Positions 16,835-17,662 of a stretch of DNA of 64,000 bases are shown piece after piece. Below the pieces are notes generated by a model that made no database searches, was not told where the DNA came from, and worked only from the letters and a program-made list of their open reading frames with translations. Position numbers and translations under genes: made by a program. Numbering within the stretch: position 1 is the first letter of the stretch; every line of letters begins with the position of its first letter. The DNA comes from Escherichia phage ECO4. Location: the sequence record NC_054911.1. One strand, 5' to 3'.

Positions 16835-16910
16835 TGGTCGAGGCAGTAGGGATCGAACCTACGACCCAGGACTTAGAAGGTCCTTGCTCTTCCTTCTGAG
16901 CTATGCCTCG
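16835..16910 (-). tRNA. tRNA-Arg (anticodon TCT), CCA encoded
   Basis: Manual cloverleaf fold of the reverse complement; anticodon loop CTTCTAA. Confidence 0.8.
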
Positions 16911-16914
16911 TATT

Positions 16915-16989
16915 TGGCGGACGTGATAGGATTCGAACCTATAACCAATCACTTAACAGGCGATCGCTCTGCCATTGAGCTACACATCC
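16915..16989 (-). tRNA. tRNA-Asn (anticodon GTT), CCA encoded
   Basis: Manual fold; anticodon loop CTGTTAA; T-loop TTCGAAT. Confidence 0.65.
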
Positions 16990-16993
16990 AAAT

Positions 16994-17080
16994 TGGTGGG
17001 GAGTGATGGAGTCGAACCACCCGAGTCGCAATGACAATGGATTTACAGTCCACACCGCTACCTCTACGGGATAACTCCCC
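16994..17080 (-). tRNA. tRNA-Tyr (anticodon GTA), type II with long variable arm, CCA encoded
   Basis: Manual fold; anticodon loop CTGTAAA. Confidence 0.65.
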
Positions 17081-17089
17081 AAATTAATT

Positions 17090-17164
17090 TGGTGGCCCTG
17101 GGTGGAATTGAACCACCATCTGGCGATTATGAGTCGCTTGCTTGAACCTTCCAGCTACAGGGCC
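17090..17164 (-). tRNA. tRNA with CAT anticodon (Met, or Ile reading AUA after anticodon modification)
   Basis: Manual fold; anticodon loop CTCATAA; one A-C mismatch in the anticodon stem. Confidence 0.7.
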
Positions 17165-17165
17165 T

Positions 17166-17241
17166 TGGTGCTGATTGACGGAATCGAACCGCCGACCTTC
17201 TCATTACAAGTGAGTTGCTCTACCTACTGAGCTAAATCAGC
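17166..17241 (-). tRNA. tRNA-Thr (anticodon TGT), CCA encoded
   Basis: Manual fold; anticodon loop CTTGTAA. Confidence 0.8.
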
Positions 17242-17246
17242 AAAAC

Positions 17247-17336
17247 TGGCGGAGGCGATAGGATTTGAACCTATGAGTCGCCGGAGCGACTGCCGGTTTT
17301 CAAGACCGGTGCATTAAACCACTCTGCCACGCCTCC
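17247..17336 (-). tRNA. tRNA-Ser (anticodon TGA), type II, CCA encoded
   Basis: Manual fold; anticodon loop CTTGAAA; long variable arm. Confidence 0.8.
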
Positions 17337-17338
17337 AG

Positions 17339-17412
17339 TCTCCGCGGCAGGATTTGAACCTACGACATTCTGCTCCCAAAGCAGACGCTCTACCAAACTG
17401 AGCTACACGGAG
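17339..17412 (-). tRNA. tRNA-Pro (anticodon TGG), CCA not encoded
   Basis: Manual fold; anticodon loop TTTGGGA. Confidence 0.8.
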
Positions 17413-17422
17413 TAAATTAAAT

Positions 17423-17496
17423 TGGAGCGGATAATGAGAATCGAACTCACATCATCAGATTGGAAGTCTGAGGTAATGCCATTATACGATATCCGC
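17423..17496 (-). tRNA. tRNA-Gly (anticodon TCC), CCA encoded
   Basis: Manual fold; matches the T4 tRNA-Gly sequence as I recall it. Confidence 0.85.
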
Positions 17497-17501
17497 AAAT
17501 T

Positions 17502-17588
17502 TGGTGCGAGAAGTGGGACTCGAACCCACAAGGAAATCATTCCGCAGCATTTTAAGTGCTGTGCCTTTACCAATTTGACCATTCTCGC
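17502..17588 (-). tRNA. tRNA-Leu (anticodon TAA), type II, CCA encoded
   Basis: Manual fold; anticodon loop CTTAAAA. Confidence 0.8.
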
Positions 17589-17589
17589 G

Positions 17590-17662
17590 CTGGGAATAAA
17601 GGACTCGAACCTTTGCATCCTGGAATCAAAATCCAGTGCCTTACCAACTTGGCTAATTCCCA
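17590..17662 (-). tRNA. tRNA-Gln (anticodon TTG), CCA not fully encoded
   Basis: Manual fold; anticodon loop TTTTGAT. Confidence 0.8.

Follow-up and report, generated by a model that had tools for sequence, protein, structure and literature searches.

The 64,000-nucleotide (nt) stretch of Escherichia phage ECO4 analysed here (sequence record NC_054911.1; referred to below as the window, whose coordinates are used throughout) carries a cluster of transfer RNA (tRNA) genes at positions 16835–17662. ARAGORN, run on the whole window, finds ten tRNA genes, all of them in this cluster and on the minus strand, and reads them in the order of transcription as Gln(TTG), Leu(TAA), Gly(TCC), Pro(TGG), Ser(TGA), Thr(TGT), a gene with the anticodon CAT, Tyr(GTA), Asn(GTT) and Arg(TCT). 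We interpret the locus as the tRNA operon of Tequatrovirus in its T2-type form, which lacks segB, the mobile gene of a homing endonuclease, with the ten genes arranged head to tail and followed by a small open reading frame (ORF) and by the small stable RNA genes rnaD and rnaC (Table 1). We assign this interpretation a probability of about 0.88, and our analysis of the identity of the array turned up nothing that contradicts it.

An earlier sequence-only reading of the window, made by folding the letters by hand, had described ten contiguous minus-strand cloverleafs with these isotypes, and ARAGORN returned identical coordinates and anticodons. The predictor also folds both the Tyr and the Asn candidates and leaves the isotypes unchanged, with the CAT gene labelled as Met from its anticodon. 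Searches with the Rfam tRNA model (RF00005, gathering score 29) gave 59–73 bits for nine of the ten genes (E 1e-11 to 3e-15). The remaining gene, the class II tRNA-Tyr, was listed solely under the clan-mate tRNA-Sec model, with 34 bits against that model's threshold of 47, and its identity rests on the ARAGORN call together with its similarity to the genes annotated as tRNA-Tyr in T2 (98.9% identity) and T6 (97.7%). As judged by predictor and sequence, all ten are canonical bacterial-type tRNA genes.

The genes of the array are separated by spacers of 0–10 nt. Tyr and Asn lie between the CAT gene and Arg with the short spacers that had been described for them, which measure 9 nt from CAT to Tyr, 4 nt from Tyr to Asn and 4 nt from Asn to Arg. 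An encoded 3' CCA is present in eight of the ten genes, the exceptions being Gln, where a single C is followed by the first base of Leu, and Pro, where a C and then a T separate the discriminator A from tRNA-Ser; these 3' contexts agree with the sequence-only reading, which had named the same two genes.

Table 1 Features of the tRNA locus, listed in the direction of transcription (positions in the window)
Feature	Position	Strand	Description
Candidate middle-promoter-like site	17724..17758	-	MotA-box-like TATGCTTTA followed by an A/T-rich -10-like element; pattern match only
tRNA-Gln (TTG)	17589..17662	-	ARAGORN; Rfam 67.4 bits; abuts tRNA-Leu; first C of CCA only
tRNA-Leu (TAA)	17502..17588	-	CCA encoded; 100% identity to T4, T2 and T6
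tRNA-Gly (TCC)	17423..17496	-	CCA encoded; 98.6% identity to T4
tRNA-Pro (TGG)	17338..17412	-	CCA not encoded; 84% identity to T4 and T2
tRNA-Ser (TGA)	17247..17336	-	CCA encoded (not in T4); body identical to T4 and T2
tRNA-Thr (TGT)	17166..17241	-	CCA encoded; 96.1% identity to T4; gene lacking in T2
CAT-anticodon tRNA	17090..17164	-	CCA encoded; 100% identity to T2, 61–65% to T4 Ile
tRNA-Tyr (GTA)	16994..17080	-	ARAGORN; class II with long variable arm; CCA encoded
tRNA-Asn (GTT)	16915..16989	-	ARAGORN; Rfam 70.7 bits; discriminator G; CCA encoded
SegB preferred site, 27 bp	16913..16939	-	GGTTCGAATCCTATCACGTCCGCCAAA; spans T-arm and 3' end of tRNA-Asn
tRNA-Arg (TCT)	16835..16910	-	CCA encoded; T2 allele, 100%; 62–65% to T4 and T6 Arg
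116-amino-acid (aa) ORF	16466..16816	-	Between tRNA-Arg and rnaD; stop codon abuts rnaD start
rnaD counterpart (species 2 small stable RNA)	16354..16468	-	95/120 identical to T4 rnaD
rnaC counterpart (species 1 small stable RNA)	16209..16347	-	135/139 identical to T4 rnaC
Intrinsic-terminator-like hairpin	16135..16158	-	10 pairs, 7 of them G-C, then a T run; closes the tRNA/small-RNA unit

The array compared with T4, T2 and other relatives

The window belongs to Tequatrovirus, with 95–97% identity to hundreds of T4-like genomes over the 22 kb compared, and its genome is mosaic, as is usual in this genus. It is syntenic with T4 from 55.6 to 100 kb, and alignment to T4, synteny and the PHROG matches of the flanking ORFs together place the cluster between the trna.2 homologue and the rnaD/rnaC–e.8 region. 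The T4 record gives the order Gln, Leu, Gly, Pro, Ser, Thr, Ile, segB, Arg, rnaD, rnaC, and so bears out the description in the sequence-only reading of eight T4 tRNAs without Asn or Tyr and of two small stable RNAs near Arg. The same reading had proposed that the tRNA repertoire departs from that of T4 amid near-identical flanks, which was confirmed by alignment and synteny. Near-identity with T4 runs from upstream of Gln to ~13 nt into the Ile gene, beyond which the sequences are unrelated, and identity returns exactly at the start of rnaD. In the divergent interval, T4 has segB between Ile and Arg genes that are other alleles than those of the window, which has the CAT, Tyr, Asn and Arg genes followed by the 116-aa ORF.

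By sequence and order, the seven 5' tRNAs of the window correspond to Gln, Leu, Gly, Pro, Ser, Thr and Ile of T4. The two loci share their genomic position and flanks, are collinear from Gln to Thr at 83–100% identity, lack CCA at both the Gln–Leu and the Pro–Ser junctions and have rnaC genes that are 97% identical. They differ in that T4 carries segB where the window has Tyr and Asn, in the divergent T4 Ile and Arg genes (61–65% identity), in the 3' ends of Ser and Ile, on which CCA is encoded in the window but not in T4, and in the space between Arg and rnaD, which contains no ORF in T4.

In T2 (AP018813) the order is Gln, Leu, Gly, Pro, Ser, ORF, CAT, Tyr, Asn, Arg, ORF, and the identity of the window genes to their T2 counterparts is 100% for CAT, 98.9% for Tyr, 98.7% for Asn and 100% for Arg. 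At this level of identity the CAT/Tyr/Asn/Arg block is the T2 allele, and the window, as read from these alignments, joins a full T4-like 5' part, including the Thr gene that T2 lacks, to a T2-like 3' part. With T2 the window further shares the absence of segB, an intact SegB site in tRNA-Asn, a homologous ORF after Arg, the same allele of rnaD and the encoded CCAG of tRNA-Ser, a 3' end that agrees with the T2L-type Ser gene in PMC2330249. Unlike the window, T2 carries an ORF of 402 nt where tRNA-Thr would lie and hence has nine tRNAs; the window has no homologue of this ORF, and its Gln (89%) and Pro (84%) genes are other alleles than those of T2.

Two genes of the 5' part, Gln and Pro, are divergent alleles. 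tRNA-Gln shares ~88–89% identity with its counterparts in T4, T2 and T6, and every difference is located in the anticodon arm, where the stem reads CTGGA/TCCAG as compared with TAGCA/TGCTA in T4, with pairing preserved, and the loop TTTTGAT is that of E. coli tRNA-Gln, the T4 loop being CTTTGAC. Outside this arm the gene is identical to T4, T2 and T6, which gives it the look of a cassette-like allele. In tRNA-Pro, inspection of the alignment by eye shows substitutions in the anticodon stem, the T stem and the 3' acceptor strand that keep pairing, and the Leu and Ser genes in its neighbourhood are 100% identical to T4.

The T2-type arrangement itself is already known from T2, was published in 2008 and is an ordinary one (PMC2330249). 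Brok-Volchanskaya et al. sequenced the tRNA regions of T2L, RB1 and RB3, in which segB is lacking, and found the preferred SegB cleavage site to be 27 bp in tRNA-Asn, a second site in tRNA-Ser being weaker; the Asn site differs from the Ser site by G6, A16, G18, A26 and A27 (PMC2330249). When T4 and T2L were co-infected, a ~1250-bp T2L segment comprising Met(CAT), Tyr, Asn, Arg and two ORFs was almost completely replaced by the T4 allele (PMC2330249).

Both the window and T2 contain an exact match to the 27-mer, which we reconstructed from the positional description in that paper; the T4 and T6 loci do not contain it. Compared with the corresponding Ser sequence, the window 27-mer differs at exactly positions 6, 16, 18, 26 and 27. 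A tblastn search with T4 SegB returned no segB homologue at the tRNA locus, and the ORF list contains no ORF between the tRNA genes. Since segB is absent and the 27-bp site is intact, the window carries the segB-less recipient allele, with the published preferred SegB target preserved in tRNA-Asn and predicted to be cleaved. In a mixed infection with T4, the T4 allele would be expected on evolutionary grounds to cut and overwrite this one, because segB is missing and the SegB site is present. The sole SegB match in the window is a paralogue, a GIY-YIG protein at 56211–56741 with 31% identity, which by synteny probably occupies the segD position.

The 828-nt array as a whole is found in 59 phage records at at least 99% identity and in 396 at at least 80% coverage, and the T2-type allele is annotated in hundreds of GenBank records. 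A 191-nt probe running from the end of CAT through Tyr and Asn to the start of Arg was covered to at least 80% in 385 records, as compared with 126 for the T4-type segB, so that T4 represents the minority form. The phages vB_Eco_BGP (OZ035849), 232Ecol030PP (PP355090) and fFiEco06 (MG781190) have the same ten tRNAs in the same order, with arrays 99.2–99.4% identical to that of the window; the 232Ecol030PP array differs from it at five places, all single substitutions. The surroundings are mosaic, 232Ecol030PP being without the 116-aa ORF.

Two further relatives depart from this gene set. ECML-363 has an eleventh gene, a tRNA-His at positions 3195–3270 of its locus, within a ~190-nt insert between Asn and Arg, where the window has a 4-nt spacer (16911–16914). 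T6 (MH550421) has the order Gln, Leu, Gly, Thr, CAT (T4 type), Tyr, segB, Arg. Its tRNA-Tyr is identical to that of the window at 85 of 87 positions (97.7%), the two differences lying outside the variable arm. In T6, however, segB occupies the place of tRNA-Asn, the Pro and Ser genes are missing, and the CAT and Arg alleles are those of the T4 type. The window tRNA-Asn, 98.7% identical to that of T2, has no counterpart in T4 or T6. At megablast level, parts of the array are also matched by 18 Campylobacter phage records and by many Klebsiella and Enterobacter phage records, so individual tRNA genes of the cluster are shared well beyond Tequatrovirus.

Probable codon supply and possible counter-defence

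The T4 cluster is transcribed as polycistronic precursors. RNase P and 3' exonucleases of the host process them, and those T4 tRNAs whose genes do not encode CCA are completed by the host CCA-adding enzyme. From this established T4 biology, the cluster of the window would be transcribed and processed likewise, with the CCA-adding enzyme needing to complete Gln and Pro only, and Ser and Ile in addition in T4.

Codon usage was compared between 85 greedy-called ORFs of the window and 35 annotated genes of E. coli K-12. Tyr (1.45-fold) and Asn (1.43-fold) are the two most enriched amino acids, and the codons of the eight other anticodons rank among the most enriched (AGA 9.3-fold, AUA 6.4-fold, GGA 4.1-fold, ACA 3.1-fold, UCA 3.0-fold, UUA 2.3-fold, CCA and CAA 1.7-fold each). 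In the late genes, taken as the structural ORFs on the plus strand, Asn reaches 61.7 per 1000 as compared with 39.9 in the host sample and Tyr 44.6 as compared with 30.9, and codons cognate to the ten tRNAs account for 28% of all codons in the late genes versus 13% in the host sample. Asn, Tyr and AUA, whose usage the sequence-only reading had singled out for comparison with the host, are all enriched relative to this sample. The tRNAs would supplement the host pool for the A+T-rich genes of the phage, at A-ending codons and at those for Tyr and Asn, and the codon data support supply for demand, in a correlative manner, as the most likely function of the array.

Several points count against this view. 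The codon-demand argument is a correlation, drawn from a sample of only 35 host genes and from greedily called ORFs. For Lys, which is equally enriched (1.42-fold), the phage encodes no tRNA. Relatives carry a tRNA-His, yet His is under-used in the window ORFs (0.62-fold), so demand cannot explain every member of the variable block formed by Tyr, Asn and, in relatives, His. Finally, T4 does without Tyr and Asn, and both must accordingly be dispensable, at least on laboratory hosts.

A second role is suggested by recent work on the Septu defence system, which attacks tRNA-Tyr by cutting its variable loop (Chihara et al. 2026, PMC13096335). Over-expressed or SegB-amplified tRNA-Tyr of T6, a product detected by northern blot and tRNA-fragment sequencing, restores growth of T6 under Septu, and T6 becomes more sensitive when its tRNA region is deleted; T4 has no tRNA-Tyr and cannot escape Septu, and T2 is resistant (PMC13096335). 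The extra tRNA-Tyr of the window phage may likewise buffer it against defences that cleave tRNA-Tyr, as documented for the near-identical T6 gene, although amplification driven by SegB would be unavailable to this phage at the tRNA locus, because segB is absent there.

These observations raise a tentative and, in our judgement, rather unlikely alternative, in which the variable block is kept mainly as a counter-defence that replaces or out-titrates cleaved host tRNAs, and not for codon supply. The tRNAs for Tyr, Asn and His all have GUN anticodons and belong to the queuosine family, and relatives carry tRNA-His despite the under-used His codons. Colicin E5 targets exactly the Tyr, His, Asn and Asp tRNAs, which it cleaves at the QUN anticodon (PMC1669751, PMC1635277), and retron-Eco7, like Septu, cleaves tRNA-Tyr (PMC13096335). 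Extra copies of a T6 gene that is 97.7% identical to the window tRNA-Tyr overcome Septu, and among the classical phages T2, with the same Tyr/Asn/Arg block, resists this system, whereas T4, in which the block is lacking, is restricted. Septu also cleaves the tRNA-Tyr of T6, which acts through dosage only, and the literature searched yielded no defence that targets tRNA-Asn during phage infection. Moreover, Tyr and Asn are the amino acids in greatest excess demand, so that supply alone would suffice to account for both genes. Nor do the anticodon loops point to evasion of a nuclease: that of the phage tRNA-Tyr, CTGTAAA, is the same as in the host gene tyrU, to which the gene as a whole is 65% identical, and the tRNA-Asn loop CTGTTAA is presumably that of E. 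coli tRNA-Asn, so neither shows an evasive change.

Assignment of the CAT gene and origin of tRNA-Tyr and tRNA-Asn

The CAT gene is best read as a tRNA of the Ile2 type, which would read AUA after lysidine modification. Among 12 E. coli matches taken from across the ranking of 5430 matching records, all 12 are annotated as tRNA-Ile, at 76–87% identity. The gene is 79–82% identical to ileX-type genes and 63% identical to elongator tRNA-Met, and its anticodon arm, GCGACTCATAATCGC, is identical to that of K-12 ileX. Its acceptor stem (GGCCC.../...GGGCC) contains the pairs C4-G69 and C5-G68, which we take to be determinants for TilS, and its position in the array corresponds to that of tRNA-Ile in T4.

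Alternatively, the gene could encode an elongator or initiator tRNA-Met, and the phage would then have no reader of AUA. This is what the anticodon says when read literally, as ARAGORN does, and tRNA-Met is also the label given to the gene in most GenBank records of relatives and in the 2008 paper. We nevertheless regard the Met assignment as improbable, given the ileX-like body with an anticodon arm identical to that of ileX, the uniform tRNA-Ile annotation of the sampled E. coli matches, the location in the T4 tRNA-Ile position, the C4-G69/C5-G68 pairs of the acceptor stem and the 6.4-fold enrichment of AUA in the phage ORFs. Met was also tried as a candidate by direct comparison with E. coli ileX and metT/U, and was rejected on the similarity to ileX.

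That Tyr and Asn might be recent captures of host chromosomal tRNA genes, or functionless passengers in decay, is very improbable: nothing speaks specifically for it beyond the known role of tRNA genes as targets of recombination and homing, whereas both genes score as canonical tRNAs with the expected discriminator bases and CCA and are conserved at 95–99% across hundreds of phages. Recent capture from the E. coli chromosome was rejected on the basis of blastn, which gave no E. coli chromosomal match to tRNA-Tyr at E ≤ 1 and, for tRNA-Asn, no full-length E. coli chromosomal match and only partial weak ones.

Unexpectedly, close relatives of tRNA-Tyr are found on E. coli plasmids. In 269 of 5426 E. 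coli genomes, a tRNA-Tyr with 90–94% identity to that of the window is encoded on plasmids of 70–110 kb, where it forms part of an Asn-Tyr-Thr-Ser array beside genes for DNA ligase, primase, a CobT-related protein, GrxA and integrase. From this gene content we infer that the plasmids are phage-plasmids of the SSU5/pHCM2 kind. The other tRNAs of the plasmid array are 68–79% identical to those of the window. Because the variable arm and the entire 3' half of tRNA-Tyr are identical between the window and the plasmids (positions 5001–5087 of each of the plasmid loci L006 and L007), the alignments suggest that tRNA-Tyr has been exchanged between T-even phages and phage-plasmids.

Flanking elements and significance of the locus

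Upstream of the array, the MotA-box-like candidate lies ~60–95 nt from tRNA-Gln, and TATAAATA motifs were likewise found by pattern match only. A scan of the region for sigma-70 sites returned 11, where 10.1 are expected from shuffled sequence.

The 116-aa ORF downstream of tRNA-Arg belongs to PHROG 3355 (unknown function; E 9e-53) and is identical at 103 of 116 residues to the T2 ORF at the same position; ECML-363 also has this ORF, whereas T4 and 232Ecol030PP do not. Searches of Pfam, NCBIfam and PDB gave no match above threshold, with the Pfam family DUF2654 appearing below it, and a single-sequence AlphaFold model, with a mean predicted local distance difference test (pLDDT) score of 54, was too poor for a fold search.

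Both small stable RNAs are present in the window, shifted downstream by this ORF. They were identified through homology to the T4 annotation, Rfam giving no match to rnaC or rnaD at E ≤ 1 in 15500–19500. Seven phages show three allele types of rnaD, with invariant ends and a variable stretch of ~50 nt in the centre, in which the window has another allele than T4; the closing helix contains three fully compensated pairs that have changed on both sides. rnaC has a tRNA-like T-arm hairpin at its 3' end and a minimum free energy of -49.3 kcal/mol (z = -4.3 as compared with shuffled sequences).

The terminator-like hairpin that follows is homologous to sequence downstream of rnaC in T4; terminator-type sites in the region number 3, as compared with 2.9 in shuffled sequences, and are not above chance. 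A 36-nt terminator-type stem-loop occurs twice, at 15569–15604 and 16126–16161, in copies that are 94% identical and 557 nt apart. They bracket a 112-aa ORF (15746–16084; PHROG 2280, unknown function) that T4 does not have at this place; judging from this arrangement, a small cassette appears to have been inserted, the hairpin being duplicated in the process. Elsewhere in the window, counterparts are lacking for the T4 genes mobD (in whose place there are other small ORFs), ipII/ipIII, and segC and 5.3; the places concerned in the window are 830–1792, 10113–11035 and 25306–25311.

For the T-even phages, the locus offers a clean textbook case: close relatives differ in whether they carry segB or its target allele, with the change in tRNA repertoire a by-product of this segregation. 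A broader proposal, which we put forward as doubtful, is that the variable block serves chiefly as a spare pool against nucleases acting on GUN tRNAs (Septu, retron-Eco7 and E5-like enzymes), that tRNA-Asn has a cognate defence of its own, that homing by SegB trades protection for amplification, and that the tRNA-Tyr of the phage-plasmids is a shared, exchanged counter-defence gene. If the spare-pool proposal were true, homing by SegB would erase Asn, as in T6, or both Tyr and Asn, as in T4. As tRNA-Tyr has been known since 2026 to modulate sensitivity to Septu, the allele that a phage has at this locus, with Tyr and segB each either present or absent, may predict part of the host range and whether the phage can escape by amplification.

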